From Vicinamibacterales bacterium (GTDB lineage: Bacteria; Acidobacteriota; Vicinamibacteria; Vicinamibacterales; UBA2999), in contig CAXNKG010000003.1 of NCBI GenBank assembly GCA_964202965.1, positions 23,032-87,031 on the forward strand: DNA of 64,000 nucleotides, in the 5' to 3' direction. Every line of letters starts with the position of its first letter. The first letter of the stretch is position 1. The translations under genes and the position numbers were made by a program. Shown in pieces: positions 15,595 to 62,316 of the stretch. Below the pieces are notes generated by a model. That model was not told where the DNA came from. It saw nothing but the letters and a program-made list of their open reading frames with translations, and ran no database searches.

Positions 15595-20134
<4,540 letters not shown>

Positions 20135-20596: not shown

Positions 20597-22162
20597 CTAC
20601 GAGGTGGACTCTTCGTCGCAGAGCCGGCTGAGCGCCTTGCCGAGAAGCGCGGCAACGTCGGTGGCGGTCATGGACACCTGCCCTTCGGCCGTCTCGGCAA
20701 GATCGCCAGCGGCGCCGTGCAGGAACACCGCAAGGCGGCAGGCCGCCTCCGCGTCGAGGAGCTGCGCGAGCCAGGCGGTAATCATGCCGGTCAGCAGGTC
20801 GCCGGTGCCGCCGGTCGCCATGCCGGCGTTGCCGGTCGGGTTGATGAAGACGCGCCCCTCCGGCGTGGCGATGATGGTGCGATGCCCTTTGAGGACCACG
20901 TACACACGCCGTGTCGCGGCGAACGTGGAGGCGACGTCGATACGGTGTGCCTGCACGTCATCGACCGACGCGCCAATCAGTCGTGCCATCTCTCCCGGAT
21001 GCGGCGTGATGATGACGTCGCGCTCCTCCCTGCCGACCAGGCTTGACGGATCATCGGCAAGAACAGCCAGCGCGTCGGCATCGAGCACGAGCGGCACCGT
21101 GGAACGCTCGAGCAGCGCCCGTACGAACTCCCCGACCGACGACTCGCGGCCAAGTCCGGGGCCGCAGGCGATGACGTCGTGCCGCATGTCCAGGATCGCG
21201 GCGACCGACGCCGCGGTGACGCACCCCGCCTTCGAGTCGGCCAGCGGCTCGGTCATGAACTCGGCGCCCATCGACGCGATGATCGGCAGGCAGGACGCTG
21301 GCGTCGCGACGGTCACGAGGCCTGTCCCTGACCGGAGCGCGCCGACGGCCGCGAGAAACGCGGCGCCCGTCTTTCCGCGCGACCCGGCCACAATCGTCAC
21401 GCGCCCGAAATCGCCCTTATGCGAGTCGGCCGCCCGCGGTTCCACGAGGAGCTTGAGCGACTCGGGCGTCAGCAGCTCGATGTACGGCCCCTCCAACCCT
21501 TCGACGACCTCAGATGGAATGCCGATGTCGGCAATCACCACGTCGCCCGCATGCGTCTCGCCTGGCGGCAGCACAAGCGGCAGCTTGGGGGTCGCGAGCG
21601 TGACCGTCATCGACGCGTCAATGCAGTCGCCGATGAGATGCGGCGTATCGGCGGACAGGCCGCTCGGAAGGTCGATGGACACGATCGGGATCCCGGACGC
21701 ATTCACATCCGCGACGACCGTTTCCATCATGCCGGCAAGCGCCGACTTCAAGCCGGTGCCGAACATCGCGTCGACGATCAGCGTGCACTGCGAGATTTCG
21801 GAGAAATGCAGCTCCCAGGTCTGCTCGTCGCCGATCTCGACGACGGTCGCGCCGACGCGACCGAGGATGTCGAGATTCGAGCGGGCGTCCCCGCGGACGT
21901 CCGACACCGATCCCAGCAGGAACACCGCCACCTCGACCCCGCGCTGCATCAGCGTGCGGGCGACGACGAAGCCGTCCCCGCCGTTGTTGCCGCGCCCGCA
22001 CAGCACGGCCACGCGCCCCTCGAGGCGCGACTCGTACGCCGCTTCGAGCGCGGCGACGACCTGACGGCCGGCATTCTCCATGAGCACCAGCGACGGAATG
22101 CCGATGTCTTCGACTGTGAAGCGATCGGCCTCGCGCATCTGCGCGGCATTGAGGATCCGCAT
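20597..22162 (-). CDS. nnr: bifunctional NAD(P)H-hydrate epimerase / ADP-dependent dehydratase
   Basis: YjeF N-terminal domain (VLCGRGNNGGDGFV) plus a C-terminal carbohydrate-kinase domain (GTGDLLTG). Confidence 0.9.
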   Translation of the reverse strand: MRILNAAQMREADRFTVEDIGIPSLVLMENAGRQVVAALEAAYESRLEGRVAVLCGRGNNGGDGFVVARTLMQRGVEVAVFLLGSVSDVRGDARSNLDILGRVGATVVEIGDEQTWELHFSEISQCTLIVDAMFGTGLKSALAGMMETVVADVNASGIPIVSIDLPSGLSADTPHLIGDCIDASMTVTLATPKLPLVLPPGETHAGDVVIADIGIPSEVVEGLEGPYIELLTPESLKLLVEPRAADSHKGDFGRVTIVAGSRGKTGAAFLAAVGALRSGTGLVTVATPASCLPIIASMGAEFMTEPLADSKAGCVTAASVAAILDMRHDVIACGPGLGRESSVGEFVRALLERSTVPLVLDADALAVLADDPSSLVGREERDVIITPHPGEMARLIGASVDDVQAHRIDVASTFAATRRVYVVLKGHRTIIATPEGRVFINPTGNAGMATGGTGDLLTGMITAWLAQLLDAEAACRLAVFLHGAAGDLAETAEGQVSMTATDVAALLGKALSRLCDEESTS

Positions 22163-22186
22163 TCAAACAGTAGGATACTCGGTCAC

Positions 22187-22206
22187 GCGCAGGCTGACGC
22201 CTGCGC
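22187..22206 (-). terminator. perfect GC-rich hairpin right after the gcvP stop
   Basis: GCGCAGGC-TGAC-GCCTGCGC: 8-bp stem, 4-nt loop, one nt from the gcvP stop. No U tract. Confidence 0.45.
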
Positions 22207-22207
22207 T

Positions 22208-25087
22208 CTACTCAAGCGGTGGGCAGGAACAGAACAGATTCCGATCGCCGTAGGGATTGTCGATCCGCCCGACCGACGGCCAGAACTTCCTCTCCCGGAC
22301 AAACGGCAACGGAAAGGCCGCCTCCTCACGCGAATACCGGTGAGGCCACTCGGACGCGGAGACCGCTTCCGCGGTGTGCGGAGCGTTCTTGAGCGGGTTG
22401 TCCACCCTGTCCGCACGGCCAGACACGACGTCTTCGATTTCCTTGCGGATCTGAATCATCGCGTCGCAGAACCGGTCGAGCTCCGCCTTGTCCTCGCTCT
22501 CGGTCGGTTCGACCATCAGCGTCCCGGCCACCGGGAACGACACCGTGGGCGCGTGAAAACCGTAATCCATCAGGCGCTTCGCGACGTCCATCTCCTCCAC
22601 GCCTGCCGCCTTGAACTGGCGCAGGTCGAAGATCAGCTCGTGGGCGACGCGGCCAGTGTCGCGCGCGTACAGCACCGGGTAATGTGTCTCGAGCCGCGCC
22701 TTCACGTAGTTCGCGTTCAGGATCGCGTAGCGTGTGGCGTTTGTCACGCCGTCGGCGCCGAGCATCCGGATGTAGCCATAGGAGATCAGCAGGATGCTCG
22801 CGCTGCCCCACGGCGCCGCCGAGATCGCATGGATAGCACGCTCGCCGCCGGTCGCGACGACGGGATGGCCTGGCAGATACGGCGCCAGGTGCTTCCCTAC
22901 CCCAATCGGGCCCATGCCCGGACCGCCGCCGCCGTGAGGGATCGCGAAGGTCTTGTGCAGGTTCAAGTGGCAGACGTCGGCGCCGATCGACGCCGGACTC
23001 GTGAGTCCGACCTGCGCGTTCATGTTGGCGCCGTCCATGTACACCTGGCCACCCTGCTCATGCACGATGTCGCAGATCGCGCGAATCTCGTCCTCGAAGA
23101 CACCGTGCGTCGAGGGGTACGTGATCATCAGGCACGCCAGCCGGTCGCGATGCTCGGCGGCCTTCTTCCGCAGATCCCCGACGTCGACGTTGCCGTTGGG
23201 CGCCGTCGCCACGACGACGACGCGCCATCCGGCCATGGCCGCCGTCGCCGGGTTCGTGCCATGCGCGGACGCCGGAATCAGCACCACGTCCCGGCGCGTA
23301 TCGCCGCGGGCGTGGTGATACGCGCGAATCACCATGAGGCCGGCGAATTCGCCCTGGGCGCCTGAATTCGGCTGGAGCGAGATGGCCGCGAAGCCGGTGA
23401 TCGCACAGAGCGCGGACTCGAGGTCACGGAAGATCTCGGCGTATCCCTGTGCCTGATCGACAGGTGCGAAGGGGTGCAGGCGGCCGAAGTGCTCCCAGGT
23501 GACAGGCAGCATCTCGGTGGCCGCGTTGAGCTTCATCGTGCACGACCCAAGCGGGATCATCGAGGTATCGAGGCCGATGTCCTTCCGCTCGAGGCCGCGG
23601 ATATAGCGCATCATCTCGGTTTCGGACTTGTGGGTGTTGAACACCGGATGTGTCAGGAACGCGGAGGCGCGTTTCAGCCCTGACGGATATCGCGCGTCAG
23701 GAATCCGGTCGAGCCGCACATCGGGAGCCCGCTTTCCAAGCGCCTTTGCAAACACCCCAACCACGTCCCGAATGTCCTCGGTCGAGACTGTTTCATTGAG
23801 CGAGACGCCAATCGTCCGCCCGTCCGGATACCGGAAGTTGATGCCGGCGGCGAGTGCGGCCTCACGAACGGCCCCGGCGTCCGGGACGTCGGCGAGGACG
23901 GTGTCGAAGTAGTGCGCGTGCCGCTGCGTGAGTCCGAGCGCCTTCAACTGCGCTTCGAGAAGCGCGGCCAGCGCATGGACGCGGGTGGCGATCGCCCGGA
24001 GGCCGTCCGGTCCGTGATACACGGCGTACATCGCCGCCATGTTCGCCAGCAGCGCCTGCGCCGTGCAGATATTGGAGGTCGCCTTCTCGCGGCGAATGTG
24101 CTGTTCGCGCGTGGCGAGCGCCATGCGATACGCCCGCTTGCCGTGCACATCGACCGACACCCCGATGATGCGCCCGGGCATCTGGCGGACGAAGCTGCTG
24201 CGGGTCGCGAAGAAGGCTGCATGCGGCCCGCCGTAACCGAGCGGCACGCCAAATCGCTGGGAGTTGCCGAACACCACGTCGGCGCCCATGTCGCCAGGAG
24301 ACGTCAACAGCGCGAGCGCCAGCAGATCCGTTCCGACGGCCACCAGCGCGCCCGCGGCATGCGCCCGATCGATGATGGGGGTCAGGTCCTCGACGAGGCC
24401 GTCGGCGTCGGGGTACTGCAGCAGGACGCCGTACGGACATCGGCCGCCGCTCGGCTCGAACGACATCGTCCGGGCGGGCGCCACCTCGACGTCAATACCC
24501 AGCGGCTCTGCGCGGCCTTTGAGAAGGTCGATAATCTGCGGCAAGCACCGGTCGCTCGCCACGAACAGCGGACGCTGTCCGTCTCCCGCCTTCTGCGTCC
24601 GCACCCGATGCAGCAGCGTCATGGCCTCGGCGGCCGCGGTCGCCTCATCGAGGAGCGACGCGTTCGCCACCTCCATTCCCGTCAAGTCGGCGACCATCGT
24701 CTGGAAATTGATGAGCGACTCGAGGCGCCCCTGGGCGATCTCCGCCTGGTACGGCGTGTAGGGGGTGTACCAGCCTGGATTCTCCATGACCATCCGCAGG
24801 ACGACGCTCGGGGTAATGGTGTCGTGATAGCCGAGACCGATATACGAACGGAACGTCCTGTTGCGCCCGGCCACGCGGGTGAGCCGCCGGAGGTACTGGT
24901 GCTCGCTCTCGGCCGGGGGCAGCACCAGCGGCGTCTTCAGCCGGATCGAGGCGGGGATCGTCTCGTCGATGAGGGCGTCGAGCGACGCGGCGCCGATGGC
25001 GGCGAGCATCGCATCCCGTTCGTCTGGCGAGGGACCGATGTGCCGCGGCGCGAACCAGTCGTTCGCGTCGAGTGACGGATTAGCCAA
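22208..25087 (-). CDS. gcvP: glycine dehydrogenase (aminomethyl-transferring), single-chain P protein
   Basis: 959 aa, full-length P-protein similarity (FAPRHIGPS..., [35 protein letters not shown]). Confidence 0.97.
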
Positions 25088-33170: not shown

Positions 33171-33589
33171 AAGCGTCGCAGCTTTCCGTAAGCCGAATCC
33201 TGTCCAGCCGTCGCGGCCTTGCGGCCGCTATGACCTGGACGACCATTCCTCTAGGCCCGCGATTGCTCGCGGGCTCAAGCGACCTACCCGGTGGCTTCGG
33301 ACGGGCCGTCCTCAAACGCCACCCTATTTGGTCTTGCTCCGTGCGGGGTTTTGCCTGCCACCCGTGTTGCCACGGGCGCGGTGCGCTCTTACCGCACCTT
33401 TTCACCCTTACCCACCATAGCGCCGAGGCGCGACGGTGGGCGGTATTTTTTCTGTGCCACTATCCGTCAAGTTGCCCTGCCCGGGCGTTACCCGGCGCAC
33501 TGCCCTCTGGAGTTCGGACTTTCCTCCCGCCTCCGCCGTTGGCCGTGAAGCCCGCGCGGAGACCGGCGGTCGTCTGGATTACTGCGACT
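33171..33589 (-). ncRNA. rnpB: RNase P RNA, bacterial type A
   Basis: The minus strand contains the universal cores GGAGGAAAGTCCGAACTCC, AAGGGTGAAAAGGTGCGGTAAGAGCGCACC and ACAGGATTCGGCTTAC. P1 pairing is GTCGCAG (33588..33582) with CTGCGAC (33181..33175). Only junk ORFs occur on both strands. The ends are approximate. Confidence 0.92.
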
Positions 33590-55038: not shown

Positions 55039-55183
55039 ATTTGGCGGAGGGTCTTGAGGCGCCCTGGCGGCGCGCCTGCGCGGCATAGGCATCCGCCGCG
55101 GCACGCGATCCGAGGATCCACCCAATCACGACCCCGAGAATCAGAATGCCCGGGATGTAAATGAAGTGGGCCGCGTTCGGCAT
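55037..55183 (-). CDS. 48-aa single-TM peptide, last ORF of the ccm operon
   Basis: My translation: MPNAAHFIYIPGILILGVVIGWILGSRAAADAYAAQARRQGASRPSAK. The ATG overlaps the upstream stop (TGATG). Below the track cutoff. Confidence 0.4.
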   Translation of the reverse strand: MPNAAHFIYIPGILILGVVIGWILGSRAAADAYAAQARRQGASRPSAK

Positions 55184-55467
55184 CAGGGGCGTCCGCCGCG
55201 CTTCAGATCCGACTCGAGACGCTCCAGTTCGCGCTGCACCGTGGCCATACGGCGGGCCACCGAGACGACGTAGGCGAAGAGCGCCAGCGCCACGAACGAG
55301 TACGCGGCAACCAGGAGCGGCGCGGCCGGGAGCTGATCCTGCGCAGGCAATTCGTCGATCGGGACGAATTCCTCCTGCTGCTGCGGCGCCTGTGCATAGA
55401 GCGCGGCGGAGCCGACGGCTAGTGGAGATATCACGGCCAGCAGAGCGATCAGTCCGAGTGTTCGCAT
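55183..55467 (-). CDS. ccmD: alternative-type CcmD-family membrane protein
   Basis: ATG 55467 (MRTLGLIALLAVISPLAVGSAALYAQ). TM plus basic/coiled tail LLVAAYSFVALALFAYVVSVARRMATVQRELERLE, typical of the alternative CcmD family. It lies directly after ccmC. Confidence 0.55.
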   Translation of the reverse strand: MRTLGLIALLAVISPLAVGSAALYAQAPQQQEEFVPIDELPAQDQLPAAPLLVAAYSFVALALFAYVVSVARRMATVQRELERLESDLKRGGRP

Positions 55468-55468
55468 T

Positions 55469-56125
55469 CTAGTTATCCGCGGAAAGATACAGGGCATCGA
55501 GCCGTGTCCGCTGCTCCTCGAGGCGCACGCGCATCCGCAGCAGCAGCACGAACATCAGCAGGAACGTCACCGCACTGAACCAGAGCGGCAGTCCGAAGGA
55601 GGTCGGCAGCGTCGGCACGACGCTGGTCGTCGGGTGAATCGTCCGCCAGTAGTTCACCGAAATGTAGATGAACGGCACGTTCGCCATCCCGAACATCGCG
55701 AGGCCGGCCCCGAGCTTATCCGACCCTGGCCCGCCGTACTTTCGCAGCAGCATGTAGGCAACCGCGACCATCCATCCCATCAGGCTGGACGTCAGCCGGA
55801 CGTCCCATTGCCACCAGACGCCCCACGCCTTGCGGGCCCACAGAGGACCGGTGATCAGCGTGATGGCTCCGAACAGCACGACCAGCTCCGCCGCAGCCCA
55901 CGCCGTTCGGTCATGGCGCGGGTTGCCCCCGAAGAGATACCGGACGCTCGCAATGCCGCAGACGATGGCCGACAGGAGGAAGACCCAGGCGGACGGAAGA
56001 TGCACGTAGAAGATCTTCTGCACGAGCCCCATCGTGGACTCGTACGGCGCCTGGGCGATGAGCACCGGCGCAACCGCGAACATCAGGCCGCAGACGACCG
56101 CGGCAGGAGTGAACCATGTAGGCAT
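55469..56125 (-). CDS. ccmC: haem exporter / haem lyase subunit CcmC
   Basis: ATG 56125 (MPTWFTPAAVV). WWD-type motif WGVWWQWDVRL and conserved His contexts. The extra N-terminus in track ORF 55469..56185 is translated repeat DNA. Confidence 0.92.
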   Translation of the reverse strand: MPTWFTPAAVVCGLMFAVAPVLIAQAPYESTMGLVQKIFYVHLPSAWVFLLSAIVCGIASVRYLFGGNPRHDRTAWAAAELVVLFGAITLITGPLWARKAWGVWWQWDVRLTSSLMGWMVAVAYMLLRKYGGPGSDKLGAGLAMFGMANVPFIYISVNYWRTIHPTTSVVPTLPTSFGLPLWFSAVTFLLMFVLLLRMRVRLEEQRTRLDALYLSADN

Positions 56126-56126
56126 A

Positions 56127-56204
56127 GGCTTTGGGCTTTGGGCTCTGGGCTTTAGGCTTTGGGCCGGCCAAGGGCCGAGAGCCAAAAGCCTAGCGCCTAG
56201 AGCC
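56127..56204. repeat. inverted pair of heptanucleotide arrays (GGCTTTG units) around a GGCCGGCC centre
   Basis: GGCTTTG GGCTTTG GGCTCTG GGCTTTA GGCTTTG GGCCGGC | CAAGGGC CGAGAGC CAAAAGC CTAGCGC CTAGAGC. It fills the ccmB-ccmC gap up to 1 nt from the ccmC ATG. Confidence 0.85.
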
Positions 56205-56207
56205 CTT

Positions 56208-56885
56208 TCAGTCTGTCATCAACGGCTCGAACGTCCAGAGCGCCAGTGTCACGAACACCACGTCGAAGCATGCCAGTAGCGCCAGCCAGAAGCCGATGAT
56301 GCTGGCGTCCACCTCTGGCTGCAGCAGCGCGGCGGTCGCGCGAACCCCGGCAATGATGACCGGAACGGTGATCGGATACAACAGCACCGGCAGCAGCACG
56401 TCGCGGCTGCGGGCGCGCACGAGCATGGCGGCGAACAGCGTGCCGACGGCCGCGAAGCCAATCGTCCCGAACACCAGGACGATCGCCAGCCAGCCCGGCC
56501 TCTCAAGCAGCGGCGCCTGGAACAGCAGCGCAACGAGCGGCACCAGGATCATCTCTGCGCCGATGAGCAGGACCACGACGCCGAGCAGTTTGCCGACATA
56601 AATCGCAGGCCGGGACGCCGGCGCCAGCAGAAGCGCGCGCAGCGTCTCGGACTGGCGCTCGCGCTCGAACGTCCGGCCCAGCGCCAGCGTCCCCGCAAAC
56701 GCGATCGCGATCCAGAGGATGCCCGCGGCGCCACCCTCCGGCGCGCGTCCCTCCTGGACCAGCGCGAACGCGAAGATCAGGACGCAGGAGACGGCGAAGA
56801 AGAGCATGGTGTACGCGATCTCCAGGCTCCGGACCTCCACCGTGAAGTCCTTGCGCAGCACCAGCCACACGATGCGCCCGAACAC
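56208..56885 (-). CDS. ccmB: haem exporter permease CcmB
   Basis: 225 aa, six TM helices, CcmB-like over the full length. Confidence 0.9.
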   Translation of the reverse strand: MFGRIVWLVLRKDFTVEVRSLEIAYTMLFFAVSCVLIFAFALVQEGRAPEGGAAGILWIAIAFAGTLALGRTFERERQSETLRALLLAPASRPAIYVGKLLGVVVLLIGAEMILVPLVALLFQAPLLERPGWLAIVLVFGTIGFAAVGTLFAAMLVRARSRDVLLPVLLYPITVPVIIAGVRATAALLQPEVDASIIGFWLALLACFDVVFVTLALWTFEPLMTD

Positions 56886-57586
56886 TACGTCGCCATCACT
56901 TTCCGGTACAGCGTCCTGAGCTCTTCAGGCCGGTCCGCCGAGCCCACCATCCGCCCATCCCGCAAAAAGATCGCGTGGTCGAGCAGGTCGCCCGCCAGAT
57001 CGAGGTCGTGCGTGGCGAGCACGATGATCGCGCCGGAATCGCGGAGCGCACGGAGTCGCGCCAGCAGCGCCGACCCGGACGCATCGTCGAGACCCGTGAA
57101 CGGCTCGTCGAGCAGCAGCAGCGTCGGCCGGTGAATCAGCGCGCGCTCCAGCGCCAGCCGCTGGCGCATCCCGCGCGAGAACGTCGACACCGGATCATCA
57201 GCGCGCTCCCCCAGGCCGGCGTGCGCCAGCGCCTCGGTGGCGGCGGCACGCGCATCCGGCACGCTGTAGAGCCCCGCGAAGAACTCCAGGTTCTCCCGCG
57301 CCGTGAGCTCGGGATAGAGGAAGAGGTCGTGGCCGAGCACGCCGATCGACCCACGAAGGGCCGCGCCATCCTGCCGGGGGTCGATCGTGCCGTAGCTGAT
57401 CAGCCCGCTCGTCGGACGAAGCAGGGTCGCCAGCATCGCAAGCATCGTCGACTTCCCTGCTCCGTTGGGACCAAGCAGGCCCAGGATGGTGCGACGGGGG
57501 ACGGTGAATGTGACATGAGAAACGGCCCTGCGGCGGCCGAAGTGGCGGGAGACGTCGTCAACCTGGAGCTCGTCGAAGGCGCTCAC
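56885..57586 (-). CDS. ccmA: haem exporter ATP-binding protein CcmA
   Basis: GTG 57586 overlaps the upstream stop (GTGA). Walker A GPNGAGKST, signature FSRGMRQRL, Walker B LLLLDEP. Confidence 0.9.
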   Translation of the reverse strand: MSAFDELQVDDVSRHFGRRRAVSHVTFTVPRRTILGLLGPNGAGKSTMLAMLATLLRPTSGLISYGTIDPRQDGAALRGSIGVLGHDLFLYPELTARENLEFFAGLYSVPDARAAATEALAHAGLGERADDPVSTFSRGMRQRLALERALIHRPTLLLLDEPFTGLDDASGSALLARLRALRDSGAIIVLATHDLDLAGDLLDHAIFLRDGRMVGSADRPEELRTLYRKVMAT

Positions 57587-58812
57587 GCGGCGACGTCCCT
57601 GCCGCCTCCCCTCGGGCCTGGATCGACATGATCCAGCTCGCCATAAATCTGTTCGAGTTCGGCAACGATGCGCTGGTGCCGCGCGTCGTCGGATCCGGAA
57701 GGCGCCCGTCGCCTCCGTTTGTATTCGAGCCCCGCAAGCTCCGCGAGGAGCTTCTCTCGTCGCGCGGCCAGGCGGCCTGCGGACCCATCCACGCGCGTGC
57801 GCCCGCTGAACCCGAGCCACAGGCCTCCCGCAATGACGAGGCCTGCGATCCCGAGCGCGGTGAACACGGGCGTGCGGCTATGCACCGGCAGGTCGGACAG
57901 CTCCATCGTCAGCGTCGAGCCAGCGGGCATCGCGTTGCCGCTGGCCAGGAGAAACGGCGTGCCCGTTTCTGGCGCCGTCACATCACCCACCGTCGAAAAT
58001 TGCGGCGACGATATCGAGACGGCTCCGACCTTCTCGATGGCGACGCTCAACTGCTCCAGCGCGACAGGCCAGGCCTGTTCAACGGTGATGTCCGCACTGG
58101 TGTACGGAAGCTGAAAGCCGACCTGGACGGACGTGAGCCCTGCGGCGAACGGTCCGACGACGGTCACGACGTCCCCGCTGATCGTCGCGCTGGGCGAAGA
58201 TCCTTCGAGCGTCGACGCGCCCGCCGCGCCCGTCGGGAGCTGCAGGATCAATGGACCACCGATGTCAACGCGCGCACGCGCGTTATTGACGATGTCGAAA
58301 ATGTAGAAGACGCGCAGCGTGTCGTCCCGGAACTCCATGAGGATGCGCGAATTCGGCCCAAGGACGACCGAGCCTTTGACGGGCGGCGCCGCGGCAGCCG
58401 CCGCGTCCTCCTGCGATTTTCGCGCGGCGGCGTCTTTCATCCCCGCCACGAGAATCACGCGGAGACCACCGGTCGCAGGCACCGTGAAGGAGTCGGAGGT
58501 CAGCGCCTCGCCGCCGATCGTGGCGTCGGCGCGCACTTCCGCGCCGGCTGTCAGGCCGGGAAACTCGGCACGGCCCTCCGCATCGGTCGTGGCTGTGCGC
58601 GGCTGTCCGTTGACCGTGAGGCGGACGCTCTGGCCGGTGATGTTGTTGCCGATGGCTTCACGGACGACGCGGACGGTCACCGTGCCTGGAGCGAGATCGC
58701 CCGCCGGGATCGCCCGGCCGTGAATCAACGACGGATCCGGCATGGCAATCTGGGCGAACAGCACCCCAAATCCCAGAAGCCACATCCCACAACCCAAAAC
58801 GACCCGCGTCAC
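57583..58812 (-). CDS. uncharacterised exported protein with CarboxypepD_reg-like N-domain, C-terminal TM anchor and cytoplasmic coiled-coil tail
   Basis: 409 aa. Signal-like N-terminus, GTVTVRVV...GQSVRLTVNGQPRTATTDAEGRAEFPGL beta-sandwich, TM ALGIAGLVIAGGLWLGF, then RREKLLAELAGLEYKRR...IVAELEQIYGELD. GTGA overlaps on both sides. Confidence 0.6.
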   Translation of the reverse strand: MTRVVLGCGMWLLGFGVLFAQIAMPDPSLIHGRAIPAGDLAPGTVTVRVVREAIGNNITGQSVRLTVNGQPRTATTDAEGRAEFPGLTAGAEVRADATIGGEALTSDSFTVPATGGLRVILVAGMKDAAARKSQEDAAAAAAPPVKGSVVLGPNSRILMEFRDDTLRVFYIFDIVNNARARVDIGGPLILQLPTGAAGASTLEGSSPSATISGDVVTVVGPFAAGLTSVQVGFQLPYTSADITVEQAWPVALEQLSVAIEKVGAVSISSPQFSTVGDVTAPETGTPFLLASGNAMPAGSTLTMELSDLPVHSRTPVFTALGIAGLVIAGGLWLGFSGRTRVDGSAGRLAARREKLLAELAGLEYKRRRRAPSGSDDARHQRIVAELEQIYGELDHVDPGPRGGGRDVAA

Positions 58813-59348
58813 GCTTTCACCAGTCCGCCGCCACAGTTCTTACAGAACCGCGCGTCGACTTCGTTCGCGGTCCCGCAGCTCGCGCAGGTCGGAATCGCGG
58901 GCGCGGTGACCCGCCTGGCGAGTTCATCCTCGATCTGCTGCCGATAGCTCGCGCCGGCGTCGAGTTGCCGCAGGAGGCCGGCAGCGCGGAGGCGGAGCCG
59001 CGCGCCCATCTCCGCACAATCCTTCTCCGAGACCTTGCCCATGGCGCGGTCGAATTCCAGATCCTTGATGGCCCGCAGCACGAGCGTCTTCTCGCGCTCG
59101 AGCGCCGCACGGGTACGGCCGCCGAGCATCTGCGGTGCCATGGGATCCTCCGCGCTGCCGAACGGCGCGAACGTGCGCCAGGCCGCGTAACCCACGAGCG
59201 CCGCGCCAAAAATAATCAGGCTGAGGAGGATGACGCCGGCAGGCGTCTCGCCGCGGGACATGAACACGACGACCGTCGCACCGATCAGGCCGGCGAGGGT
59301 GAAGAGCTGCCAGGGTTGAAACGCGTCAGTCGAGGTTTCGGAGCTCAT
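58809..59348 (-). CDS. uncharacterised two-TM protein with coiled coil and C-terminal zinc ribbon
   Basis: ATG 59348 (MSSETSTDAFQPWQLF...), overlapping the end of ccmF-H by 23 nt. Two TM helices, LEREKTLVLRAIKDLEFDRAMGKVSEKD, C-terminal CASCGTANEVDARFCKNCG. The rest of track ORF 58809..59738 is out-of-frame overlap. Confidence 0.6.
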   Translation of the reverse strand: MSSETSTDAFQPWQLFTLAGLIGATVVVFMSRGETPAGVILLSLIIFGAALVGYAAWRTFAPFGSAEDPMAPQMLGGRTRAALEREKTLVLRAIKDLEFDRAMGKVSEKDCAEMGARLRLRAAGLLRQLDAGASYRQQIEDELARRVTAPAIPTCASCGTANEVDARFCKNCGGGLVKA

Positions 59349-61788
59349 CGTCGAGACGGGCGCTCGTGGTCGCGTCCATTCCGGCGTCGCCGGCGGCCGC
59401 CGGAACCGCGCGCGTCGACCAGCGGCGCGCAGTGACGAAGATGCCGGCGAGGGCGGCAAGCGCGACGAGATACGGCACAATCCAGGCGAGGCGATTGAAC
59501 CCGCGATCAATCGGCGCGGCCAGGATGGCCTGGCTCCCGAACTCCGCGGCGAACGCGTCCCGAACCTCGTCATAGCCCTTGCCTTCCGCGAGGAAGGCTT
59601 CGAGCCGCGCCGCCTGCTGATCGTAGTGCCCGCAATTCGGGCGCATCGGGCAGCTGCCCATCGGCGACTGGCAGCCGCAGGTGCACATGATGTCACCCTC
59701 GAGCTGCCGATGCAGCTCGCTGCGCTGGTTCGGGGCAACGGTTTCGGTGGTTTGCGCGATCACCGACGCCGGCCACAGGAGCAGCGAGAACAGCAGCAGC
59801 GATGACGTGACGGCATTCGACGGCACCTTCGCCAGCGCGAATCCGAGCGCCGCTTCCGGCAGGAGCGCGATGCCGGTGCCGAGCGCAAGAATGCCGAACC
59901 CGGCCCACACCCAGTTCACCAGGGGGTTGACGACAATCTCCATGCTGGCGCTCTGCTCCTGCAGGTCGAACGCGGGCAGGACGAGGTAGAGGTCTTCAGA
60001 GAACGTGCGGCGGATCGCCACCTCGGTGGTGGGCTGATCCTCATGCTTCCGGAAATACCACTTCGCCGGATACATCTTCCCGATCTCTTCCCCGTCGCGG
60101 AACACGGTGGTGTGCGCCGTGATCATCTGCTTCTGGCCGTCGTCGGTGACGCGGACGGTGTCGAGGCGGACGGTGAAGTCGCCGACCTGGGCCTGCTGCC
60201 CGGGTTTGAGCAGTAACTGCTCGTCCTGCTTGAATCCCTCACCCGCGAAGCCCAGGAACATCAGAACGATGCCGATATGGACGATGTAGCCGCCGTACCG
60301 GCGCTTGTTGCGTGCCACGAGGCCGATGAGCGCCGTGAAGACGTCCGTGCCAGTGGCGTCCTGGCGAACCCGGGCGCCGCGCCAGAACTCCTGGCCGATC
60401 GTTCCCACGACGAAGCCGCAGAGTGCAAAGCAGATCCCAGAGGTCCAGACGCGCACGCCGAGCGCGACGAGCGCCCCGCCGACGACGAGCGCGGTCGCCA
60501 CGGGAATGAGGAACTGCTGCCGCAGATTCGTCACCGTCGTCTTCCGCCACGCGAGCAGCGGGCCCACGCCCGTGAGCACGAGCAGGATGAGGCCGACCGG
60601 GAGCATCCACTTGTTGAAGAACGGCGGACCCACGGTCAGCCGTTCGCCCGTGACTGCCTCACTGATCGTCGGAAAGAGCGTCCCGAACGCGATGAAAAAC
60701 GCCGAGAAGAGCAGGATCCAGTTATTGGCGAGAAAGGCGGCTTCGCGCGACATCCACGAATCGAGCTCGTTCCGCGCCCGCAGCAGCGGCAGCCGGTAGA
60801 TGACGAACCCGAAACTGACGGTCAGGATGGTCACCATGAAGATGATGAACATCCGGGCAAGCTCGGGGTCTTCGCCAAACGCATGGACCGACTGCACGAT
60901 TCCCGACCGCGTCAGGAACGTGCCGAAGATCGTCAGGAAGAACGTGAGGATGACGAGCGTGACGTTCCAGACGCGCAGCATGCCGCGCTGCTCCTGCACG
61001 CGCACCGAATGCAGGAACGCGGTCGCAGTGAACCACGGCAGCAATCCCGCGTTCTCGACCGGGTCCCAGCCCCAGTAGCCGCCCCATCCGAGCTCTTCGT
61101 ACGCCCAGATCATCCCGAGCCCGAGTCCGACCGACAGGAACAGCCACGAGATCATCGTCCAGCGGCGGACGGCGCGCAGCCACGAGTCGTCCAGATACCC
61201 GGTGATGAGCGCCGCCATGCCGAACGCGAACGGAATCGTCAGGCCGACGAACCCCGTGTACATGGTGGGCGGGTGAATCACCATGTAGAAGTTCTGCAGC
61301 AGCGGGCTGAGGCCGGCGCCGTCGGTGGGGCTCTCGGTCAGGTACGTCGAGAACGGGTTGTTGTGGACGATCATCAGGAACAGGAAGAACATCTGAACCG
61401 TCGAGATGACCGCCACCACATACGGGATCAATTCCCTGTGGCGTTCCCTGTTCACGAAGACCGCGGCGCTGCCGAAGCAGGACAGCAGGAACACCCAGAA
61501 CATGATCGAGCCGTCGAGCCCGCCCCAGTACGACGTGATCTTGAAGAAGAGCGGCTGGACCGAATCCGAATAGCGCTGGACGTACTTGATCGAATAGTCG
61601 CCGACGACGAAGGCGTAGACGATGATGGCTGACGCGGCCGTCATGATGGCCGCAACGAAATAGAACGCCCCGATACCGCTTTCAATCAGTCGTGTGGAGC
61701 GCCGGCGTGCGCCCGCGACCGATGCCGCGAAGGCATACGCGCACACCACGAACGCGCTGAGAAGAAGGTAGTAGCCGAGGGATGCCAT
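59326..61788 (-). CDS. ccmF: cytochrome c haem lyase CcmF fused in frame to a CcmH-like domain
   Basis: 820 aa. CcmF core with WGGYWGWDPVENA. The last ~165 aa have a signal-like segment SSLLLFSLLLWPASVIAQ, IMCTCGCQSPMGSCPMRPNCG, LAEGKGYDEVRDAFAAEFGSQAILAAP and a TM helix, which is the CcmH/NrfF-like layout. Confidence 0.9.
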   Translation of the reverse strand: MASLGYYLLLSAFVVCAYAFAASVAGARRRSTRLIESGIGAFYFVAAIMTAASAIIVYAFVVGDYSIKYVQRYSDSVQPLFFKITSYWGGLDGSIMFWVFLLSCFGSAAVFVNRERHRELIPYVVAVISTVQMFFLFLMIVHNNPFSTYLTESPTDGAGLSPLLQNFYMVIHPPTMYTGFVGLTIPFAFGMAALITGYLDDSWLRAVRRWTMISWLFLSVGLGLGMIWAYEELGWGGYWGWDPVENAGLLPWFTATAFLHSVRVQEQRGMLRVWNVTLVILTFFLTIFGTFLTRSGIVQSVHAFGEDPELARMFIIFMVTILTVSFGFVIYRLPLLRARNELDSWMSREAAFLANNWILLFSAFFIAFGTLFPTISEAVTGERLTVGPPFFNKWMLPVGLILLVLTGVGPLLAWRKTTVTNLRQQFLIPVATALVVGGALVALGVRVWTSGICFALCGFVVGTIGQEFWRGARVRQDATGTDVFTALIGLVARNKRRYGGYIVHIGIVLMFLGFAGEGFKQDEQLLLKPGQQAQVGDFTVRLDTVRVTDDGQKQMITAHTTVFRDGEEIGKMYPAKWYFRKHEDQPTTEVAIRRTFSEDLYLVLPAFDLQEQSASMEIVVNPLVNWVWAGFGILALGTGIALLPEAALGFALAKVPSNAVTSSLLLFSLLLWPASVIAQTTETVAPNQRSELHRQLEGDIMCTCGCQSPMGSCPMRPNCGHYDQQAARLEAFLAEGKGYDEVRDAFAAEFGSQAILAAPIDRGFNRLAWIVPYLVALAALAGIFVTARRWSTRAVPAAAGDAGMDATTSARLDDELRNLD

Positions 61789-61800
61789 GTCAGCCCTCGG

Positions 61801-62316
61801 CTAGTACGACGTACTAGGGGTTCCTGAAGTTCCTAGGGTTCCTGAGGTTCCTAGGGTTCCTGAGGTTCCTAGGGTTCCTGAGGTTCCTAGGGTTCCTGGG
61901 GTTCCTGGAGTGCCTGAAGTTCCTGGGGTGCCGCCGACCTGGGGCTCGTATTTCGACGGGCACTTCGCGGTCATGCTGGTCGCGTGGAAGCCGTCCTCCG
62001 CGAGCGTGCCCTGAAGCACCACCTCAGACTCGTTCTTGAACGTGTCGGGAACGACGCCCGTATACGTGGCGCGTACCACGTGCCCCTTGCTGTGCATCTC
62101 GAAGCTGTAGTCGAGGGAGTCGCGCTTGCGGCGGATGTCCCTGGCGTAGCCGTGAATCTGGAGCGGCTTGCCGTACCAGGGTGCCGGCTGGACCATCACT
62201 TCCTCGACGTGCTTGTAGTACTGCGCGCTCTCGCCGAGCGTGGAATAGAGCAGCCCCCCGAAGGCGAGGGTCAGCACCACGCCGGTGATCCCGATTTTCG
62301 CGGCTTTGTGACTCAT
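61801..62316 (-). CDS. ccmE: haem chaperone CcmE, CxxxY variant with Gly-Thr-X repeat tail
   Basis: ATG 62316 ([23 protein letters not shown]). OB-fold core. MTAKCPSKY aligns where canonical CcmE has the HxxxY haem-binding motif. The tail is [43 protein letters not shown]. Confidence 0.88.
61818..61934. repeat. 13 tandem 9-bp units (GGTTCCTNR) inside the ccmE 3' end
   Basis: The 18-bp unit GGTTCCTGAGGTTCCTAG occurs about 4 times, flanked by degenerate 9-mers. It shares the GGTTCC core with the array at 35044..35129. Confidence 0.9.

Follow-up and report, generated by a model that had tools for sequence, protein, structure and literature searches.

A conserved gene fusion of the System I haem lyase CcmF with CcmH carries a five-cysteine loop in Acidobacteriota and Myxococcota

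In cytochrome c maturation (Ccm) by System I, CcmF, the haem lyase, acts together with a partner, CcmH, at the haem-attachment step (PMC3601427, PMC10663686). In a soil acidobacterium of the Vicinamibacterales (Acidobacteriota), the two are encoded by one gene, which lies in the 64,000-nucleotide stretch analysed here (positions 23,032 to 87,031 of the forward strand of contig CAXNKG010000003.1, GenBank assembly GCA_964202965.1). We refer to this whole stretch as the window and give all coordinates as window positions. The open reading frame (ORF) of the fusion occupies 59326..61788 on the minus strand, begins with ATG, and encodes 820 amino acids (90.7 kDa), bringing the Pfam families PF01578, PF16327 and PF03918 together in a single protein. 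An earlier note on this DNA, made from the letters alone, had proposed that a CcmH-like domain is joined in frame to CcmF. The uninterrupted ORF and its 120 best full-length homologues, all of which are fused, bear this out, and both peptide strings that were quoted in support occur verbatim in the translation.

The first 645 residues (59854..61788) form the CcmF haem-lyase core, in which a Pfam scan places Cytochrom_C_asm (PF01578) at residues 88-295 and CcmF_C (PF16327) at residues 316-642. The WWD motif reads WGGYWGWD (residues 235-242; 61063-61086), and the core histidines are His172, His260, His302 and His504, which we take to correspond to E. coli H173, H261, H303 and H491. The WWD residues and all four histidines are invariant in an alignment of 58 sequences and, judged by these residues, the CcmF core is complete and functional-looking. 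With a profile of 61 sequences, the match to T. thermophilus CcmF (6zmq) stops at the last core helix. The protein also misses the NCBIfam cut-offs for CcmF/NrfE, scoring 415 bits against 569 for TIGR00353 and 420 bits against 927 for TIGR03145. At the level of its sequence, the CcmF part is a divergent member of the family that lies under these curated thresholds.

All further parts of the gene lie on the minus strand as well. The core is followed by a short cytoplasmic linker (residues 646-658, AALGFALAKVPSN; 59815..59853), which contains an in-frame GTG encoding Val655 (59824-59826), and then by an extra hydrophobic helix (residues 659-678, AVTSSLLLFSLLLWPASVIA; 59755..59814) that is signal-peptide-like in its hydropathy and ends in an AxA-type motif. 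Next comes a periplasmic CcmH-family domain, a predicted three-helix bundle (residues 679-766; 59491..59754) recognised by PF03918, AlphaFold2, Foldseek and hhalign. Its loop CTCGCQSPMGSCPMRPNC (residues 702-719; 59632..59685) carries five cysteines, C702, C704, C706, C713 and C719, together with an invariant M715. A C-terminal transmembrane (TM) helix identified by hydropathy (residues 767-787; 59428..59490) is preceded by a conserved GFNRLAW..P motif and followed by RRW. The cytoplasmic tail (residues 788-820; 59326..59427) runs to the stop codon, ends in the conserved sequence RLDDELRNLD, and overlaps the start of the next gene with its last 23 nucleotides. The signal-peptide-like helix ahead of the periplasmic domain and the TM helix behind it had both been described in the earlier note, and hydropathy and the AlphaFold2 model agree on them. 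The resulting order of signal or anchor helix, periplasmic domain, TM helix and then positive charges is the CcmH layout. In the topology suggested by hydropathy, the CcmF core would end in the cytoplasm and the extra hydrophobic helix, a former CcmH signal peptide, would return the chain to the periplasm, where the three-helix CcmH domain would be followed by the final TM anchor and the cytoplasmic tail. The RLDDELRNLD terminus (59329-59358) is near-invariant from Acidobacteriota to Myxococcota (RLDDDLDDMD) among the C-termini of loci L001-L032 of the genome scan described below, and the stand-alone CcmH of Terriglobales has a different end, FRRQAREETEL. Constraint on this segment could come from a protein interaction or from the gene overlap.

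The assignment of the C-terminal part to CcmH comes from profile and fold comparisons. The last 166 residues alone match PF03918 with 39.9 bits (E = 3e-10), above the curated cut-off of 25 and well past what chance would give, which upholds the CcmH/NrfF pattern that the earlier note had recognised in the second half of this region; within the whole protein the match covers residues 667-812 with 36.8 bits. An AlphaFold2 model of the 166 residues has a mean predicted local distance difference test (pLDDT) score of 84, with values above 90 across the domain, and displays the CcmH three-helix bundle, its active-site loop connecting helices 1 and 2. When this model was used with Foldseek, the sole credible PDB matches were the CcmH periplasmic domains 2kw0 (probability 0.94) and 2hl7 (probability 0.96), the latter with a root-mean-square deviation of 2.1 Å over 61 columns. 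In addition, hhalign aligned the domain profile with a Dehalococcoidia relative that has the canonical CxxC at 99% probability. A single-sequence PDB search with the 166 residues gave no match; in the PDB, the link to CcmH came only from the profile and fold searches. These profile matches and the predicted fold make the C-terminal part a homologue of CcmH.

The most unusual element of this domain is its cysteine loop. The earlier note had read the canonical LRCxxC as replaced by CxCxC plus two further cysteines, and this replacement is confirmed and conserved in homologues. The window protein has IMCTCGC, a CxCxC arrangement, and the canonical LRCxxC redox motif is absent from it. Of the first-round homologues, the 104 that span this region all fit C-x-C-x(1,2)-C-x6-C-x(4,5)-C, with CxCxxC, which has CxxC spacing between the second and third cysteines (C2 and C3), in 11 of them. 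When the fused Vicinamibacterales proteins and their stand-alone Terriglobales counterparts, only about 30% identical to each other, are joined in one alignment, the five cysteines are likewise invariant. Searching 1.84 billion cluster representatives exhaustively with a profile returned 6,382 matches at E <= 1e-3, 2,041 at E <= 1e-10 and 97 at E <= 1e-30. When the best cluster representatives covering the loop were aligned with hmmalign, 141 of the 142 had at least five cysteines there, and the general pattern is C-x-C-x(1,2)-C-x6/7-C-x(1-7)-C. The prevailing form is CxCxC-x6-C-x4-C (108 of 142 representatives), followed by CxCxxC-x6-C-x4-C (10), CxCxxC-x7-CxC (9) and CxCxC-x6-C-x5-C (8), with rare other patterns in the remaining 7. 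In the AlphaFold2 model, helices 1 and 2 flank the loop, which occupies the position of the canonical CxxC. Profile alignments place C1 on the first canonical cysteine and either C2 or C3 on the second, while C4 falls within an insertion of 4-5 residues and C5 stands where canonical proteins have 'DSNA'. In L037, a relative from the Chloroflexota, CxxC is combined with C4 and C5, and this sequence looks like an intermediate form.

The fusion is shared widely among relatives. In a whole-protein search, all 120 best homologues (762-827 residues) carry PF01578, PF16327 and PF03918 in one chain; their sources are independent assemblies from NCBI, JGI and ENA, with some contigs of 1.2-5.4 Mb among them, and the window's own protein is P0121. 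The earlier proposal had called for a survey of fused and separate genes among relatives, and none of these 120 has a stop between the two parts. Their NCBI names are 'heme lyase CcmF/NrfE family subunit' or 'CcmF C-terminal domain-containing protein [Vicinamibacterales]'. Species-representative genomes, when scanned, yielded 39 loci. In the Vicinamibacterales and other Acidobacteriota among them (L002-L013, with L002-L010 being Vicinamibacterales), one ORF of 820-851 residues runs from stop to stop, and the Myxococcota (L016-L028, L032) are also fused, in a single stop-to-stop ORF of 860-1000 residues. Relative to the closest relative (L002), the ratio of nonsynonymous to synonymous substitution rates (dN/dS) is approximately 0.04 for the CcmF core and 0.15 for the CcmH part, placing both under purifying selection. 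We conclude that this conserved gene fusion of the System I haem lyase CcmF with CcmH is genuine.

A different arrangement is found in Terriglobales, where a ccmF of 672-681 residues is followed by a separate five-cysteine ccmH of about 160 residues, its start overlapping the ccmF stop or directly adjoining it. This stand-alone CcmH matches PF03918 with 60.4 bits. Downstream lie a gene for a protein of 102 residues and then a CarboxypepD_reg-like gene of about 430 residues, and no ccmE was found within 6-10 kb of the Terriglobales ccmF-ccmH pair. The unfused layout is probably the ancestral arrangement.

In the window, the fusion gene sits in an operon whose genes are all on the minus strand, in the order ccmE, ccmF-H, a zinc-ribbon gene, a gene for a 409-residue protein, ccmA, ccmB, ccmC and a ccmD-like gene, flanked by maf and a metallophosphoesterase gene. 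The first gene, ccmE (61801..62316; PF03100; likely start ATG at 62316), encodes CPSKY at 61948-61962 within the motif AKCPSKY, which has cysteine in place of the haem-binding histidine (HxxxY). This is the CxxxY hallmark by which System I* is defined, and most such CcmE proteins have CPSKY (Stevens et al. 2011, PMC3601427); the operon is thus assigned to System I*. Wherever a ccmE was found beside a fused ccmF-H, in two phyla, it is of the AKCPSKY type. Behind the fusion gene, 58809..59348 encodes a protein of 179 residues with two TM helices and a C-terminal zinc ribbon (zinc-ribbon and DUF7577 matches), its ATG being the start that overlaps the ccmF-H stop by 23 nucleotides. It is followed by the 409-residue protein (57583..58812), which is secreted or anchored, with a C-terminal TM helix, a weak CarboxypepD_reg-like domain and a mature part without cysteine; a PDB sequence search with it gave no match. 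The remaining genes are ccmA (56885-57586; Pfam ABC_tran), ccmB (56208-56885; Pfam CcmB), ccmC (55469-56185; Pfam Cytochrom_C_asm; the start may be ATG 56125) and the ccmD-like gene (55183-55497). None of ccmG, ccmI, ccdA and dsbD is in the operon, and no thioredoxin-like WCxxC ORF was found within the 64-kb window. Vicinamibacterales and Myxococcota share the gene order, including the two uncharacterised genes, which come after ccmF-H in every case (noted for the window, L002-L032 and L041-L044). A helical segment is common to the 102-residue Terriglobales protein and the window's zinc-ribbon protein, a weak similarity (pairwise E = 2e-6), and similarity between the 409-residue protein and its counterpart of about 430 residues is marginal. 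This Ccm variant may use the zinc-ribbon and 409-residue proteins as accessory factors, perhaps in the manner of CcmI.

Several further observations concern the same operon type and the rest of the window. The 3′ end of the window's ccmE (61817-61929, minus strand) carries a 9-bp (or 18-bp) tandem repeat in 12.6 copies, which encodes a (Gly-Thr-Ser/Pro/Leu)n tail, so that 45 residues follow CPSKY compared with 10-27 in relatives; the repeat seems to have expanded recently within this periplasmic tail. The CcmE of Myxococcota has an extra conserved cysteine approximately 10-13 residues past CPSKY (L016-L019, L022, L023, L025, L027, L028 and L032) that is absent from acidobacterial CcmE, set in RCSR[DE]S in most, in RCIQE in L019 and in MCSRS in L027. 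An acidobacterial-type ccmE-ccmF/H operon is also carried by a contig labelled 'MAG: Bifidobacterium breve' (L012, CALQBJ020000016.1), which is probably mis-binned, because cytochrome c production is not expected of bifidobacteria. Among stop-to-stop ORFs of 80 residues or more in the window, CxxCH occurs in just two (16992-17687 and 21332-23362, both on the plus strand), and these are possible c-type cytochrome clients. The window also carries a class A RNase P RNA (33174-33585, minus strand; Rfam RF00010, 287.8 bits), and no tRNA genes were found in its 64 kb.

System I* is reportedly the subject of studies by Allen in 2006 and Goddard in 2010. It is the variant Ccm pathway of Desulfovibrio, other delta-proteobacteria, Chloroflexi and Archaea (PMC3601427). 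Approximately one third of System I* bacteria have CcmH; the review that reports this gives no CcmH variant in System I* besides NrfF or absence, and states that bioinformatics yielded no evidence of compensatory features (PMC3601427). The window operon resembles System I* in its CPSKY-type CcmE, and no ccmG lies within the operon; it differs from System I* as reviewed in that its CcmH is fused to CcmF and cysteine-rich, and in the presence of two more conserved genes. The nearest known system is the canonical CcmF/CcmH complex in its System I* form. Relative to the canonical System I proteins of E. coli, Pseudomonas aeruginosa and Rhodobacter capsulatus (structures compared: 6zmq, 2hl7 and 2kw0), the fusion retains the WWD motif and four histidines of CcmF and, from CcmH, the three-helix periplasmic domain between signal or anchor helix and TM helix, the cysteines in the loop between helices 1 and 2, and the EGK...YG...P...W..P signature. 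Unlike canonical System I, CcmF and CcmH are one polypeptide here, at least as a precursor, a five-cysteine loop stands for LRCxxC, CcmE has cysteine for histidine, and the operon is without ccmG and ccmI; the fusion also lies below the NCBIfam CcmF/NrfE cut-offs and has no NCBIfam CcmH/NrfF match.

The closest published oddity is the CcmH-like proteins of the archaea Geoglobus and Ferroglobus. These proteins, and those of ANME-2d, have LX[S,N]C[E,D,H]C and are encoded next to ccmF (PMC4600277, PMC9012536). Like the window protein, they are CcmH homologues in organisms with a CxxxY-type CcmE and have CxC instead of LRCxxC. Compared by their descriptions, however, they are products of stand-alone genes that flank a duplicate ccmF, with CxC only and no five-cysteine loop reported. 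Fusions of other Ccm or synthase components are also known. In System II, a natural CcsB-CcsA fusion (CcsBA) occurs in Helicobacter, Wolinella and Bacteroides and has enabled purification and structural work (PMC10663686). As with CcsBA, the nearest analogy to the present fusion, two cytochrome c synthase subunits are a single polypeptide in some lineages and separate in others, although the partner there is CcsB, which is non-homologous to CcmH and belongs to another pathway. The CcmH of E. coli is itself a CcmH-CcmI fusion, taken as a sign of physical interaction (PMC3601427). This fusion and that of the window both join neighbouring Ccm components in particular lineages, but E. coli CcmH has CcmI, a tetratricopeptide repeat protein, at its C-terminus, whereas the window CcmH has CcmF at its N-terminus. 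Our literature searches found no description of a natural CcmF-CcmH fusion or of a five-cysteine bacterial CcmH. The five-cysteine CcmF-CcmH fusion is apparently a widespread yet undescribed variant of a known machine.

We favour an account, to which we assign a probability of about 0.7 as a whole, in which the conserved fusion is part of a System I* operon and carries a thiol-active five-cysteine loop. The C1/C2/C3 triad would keep thiol chemistry directed at the CxxCH of the apocytochrome, reducing or resolving disulfides ahead of haem attachment, and C4 and C5 would form a stabilising or relay disulfide. The fusion itself would fix a 1:1 ratio of CcmF to CcmH and would hold CcmH at the site of haem attachment.

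Alternatives to a single fused product were weighed on the same homologues. The continuous ORF could in principle be an assembly or sequencing artefact, arising from a missed stop or a frameshift between neighbouring ccmF and ccmH genes. The adjacent yet separate genes of Terriglobales and the split genes of a few relatives on long contigs speak for such an error, but the 120 independent full-length homologues are fused and the junction is kept at protein level. Moreover, the split copies of ccmF-H (L001, L004, L015, L020, P0021, P0028, P0044, P0072 and P0093, all on long contigs of metagenome-assembled genomes) are broken within the CcmF core and none at the domain junction, with frameshifted protein stretches visible. 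L001 has low coverage (9.46x according to its contig name) and the other broken cases are isolates labelled 'MFD...'. These copies are likely indel errors and not true splits, and a missed stop or frameshift is rejected on the fused homologues and the position of the breaks; we give it virtually no credence. Separate translation of the CcmH-like part from the GTG at 59826, which the earlier note had entertained and which would give a 17.8 kDa product, fares little better. The codon does lie directly upstream of the hydrophobic segment, but the closest relative, L002, has GTT there and others have ATT, ATA, ATC, GTA, GTC or GTT, with GTG in just two and TTG in one of 11 loci. No Shine-Dalgarno sequence lies at a usable spacing upstream of it (GCGCTGGCGAAG), and the linker is conserved as protein. 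We regard this internal start as highly improbable and reject it because the codon is not conserved. A cut made once the chain is inserted in the membrane is plausible. The hydrophobic segment looks, in sequence, like a retained signal peptide, and signal peptidase I may cut at A678|Q679, which would limit the fusion to the gene or precursor and yield CcmF with an extra C-terminal helix (75.4 kDa) and a membrane-anchored CcmH of 142 residues (15.3 kDa). Alanine at -1 and glutamine at +1 of the helix end are found in 118 of 120 homologues, and 89 of these also have V, A or L at -3. In Myxococcota, a textbook n(KK)-h-c(AxA) signal-peptide layout follows a longer cytoplasmic linker, and the stand-alone CcmH of Terriglobales begins with an N-terminal signal peptide. 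A precedent comes from Bradyrhizobium japonicum, in which cleavage of the FbcH precursor at an internal signal sequence yields cytochromes b and c1. Against cleavage, glutamine occupies -3 in 21 of the 118 and is unfavourable for signal peptidase I, and the Ala-Gln pair could be conserved for another reason, the packing of helices at the membrane surface. On balance we put cleavage at somewhat below even odds. It is compatible with the favoured account and differs from it solely in the mature form of the product.

A number of observations weigh against the account of a thiol-active CcmH domain on CcmF. The 61-sequence profile matches E. coli CcmH (2kw0) only weakly (E = 0.18), and none of the NCBIfam CcmH/NrfF models matches the 166 residues at E <= 0.01, for which reason we regard the CcmH part as a divergent branch. 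A full-length AlphaFold2 model, built with 58 homologues of 75-94% identity, has a mean pLDDT of 51.5 and a predicted template modelling score (pTM) of 0.35, and as a prediction it is too poor for placing the CcmH domain on CcmF. The System I* of Desulfovibrio functions without any CcmH (PMC3601427), and the CcmH domain may therefore be non-essential. Furthermore, five invariant cysteines within 18 residues also suit a metal site. In this alternative, the loop would bind metal, either as a Zn(Cys)4-type knuckle or a Cu(I) site or through an Fe-S cluster, and the site would rigidify the loop or sense or deliver metal; thiol-disulfide oxidoreductase activity would be lost and the domain would be only a docking or chaperone module for the apocytochrome on CcmF. 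The spacings vary among representatives with a tolerance typical of knuckles, C2 and C3 being 1, 2 or 4 residues apart and C4 and C5 1-7. Two residues past C4, Vicinamibacterales have Met, Terriglobales have His and Myxococcota have C5 itself, all of them metal ligands. AlphaFold2 predicts a small beta-bridge in the loop, and the canonical CxxC spacing is gone in approximately 90% of members. Conversely, the loop is periplasmic, where cysteine-only metal sites are uncommon; a tetrahedral site needs no odd count of invariant cysteines; C1 falls exactly on the first canonical redox cysteine, and intermediates with an intact CxxC exist; and the operon is without a metal-handling gene. We therefore consider a metal site unlikely, though a serious competitor to the thiol-active loop.

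CcmH is essential in E. coli and absent from some System I* organisms, and a large conserved five-cysteine clade, always beside a cysteine-type CcmE where this could be checked, provides a new handle on the role of CcmH and also bears on the handling of cysteine-linked haem on CcmE. As a more speculative proposal, which we hold to be doubtful, the five-cysteine CcmH would be a co-evolved part of a distinct System I* flavour, supplying redox capacity that canonical systems divide between CcmG and CcmH. In this proposal the loop may also keep the haem-binding cysteine of CcmE, or its mixed disulfides with the apocytochrome, reduced, and it would be the 'compensatory feature' of System I* that escaped earlier bioinformatics. 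The proposed parts of this flavour are CcmE(Cys), CcmF-CcmH(Cys5), a small helical or zinc-ribbon membrane protein, and a secreted CarboxypepD_reg-like protein of about 420 residues. In practical terms, a natural single-chain CcmF-CcmH could ease expression, purification and structure determination of the System I synthase, as CcsBA did for System II. The CcmH function is hidden because the proteins are labelled only 'CcmF/NrfE family', and genome surveys that score the presence or absence of CcmH will therefore miss the fusion. Finally, Vicinamibacterales, Terriglobales and Myxococcota are abundant in soil, and this variant is therefore probably a common soil route to cytochromes c.

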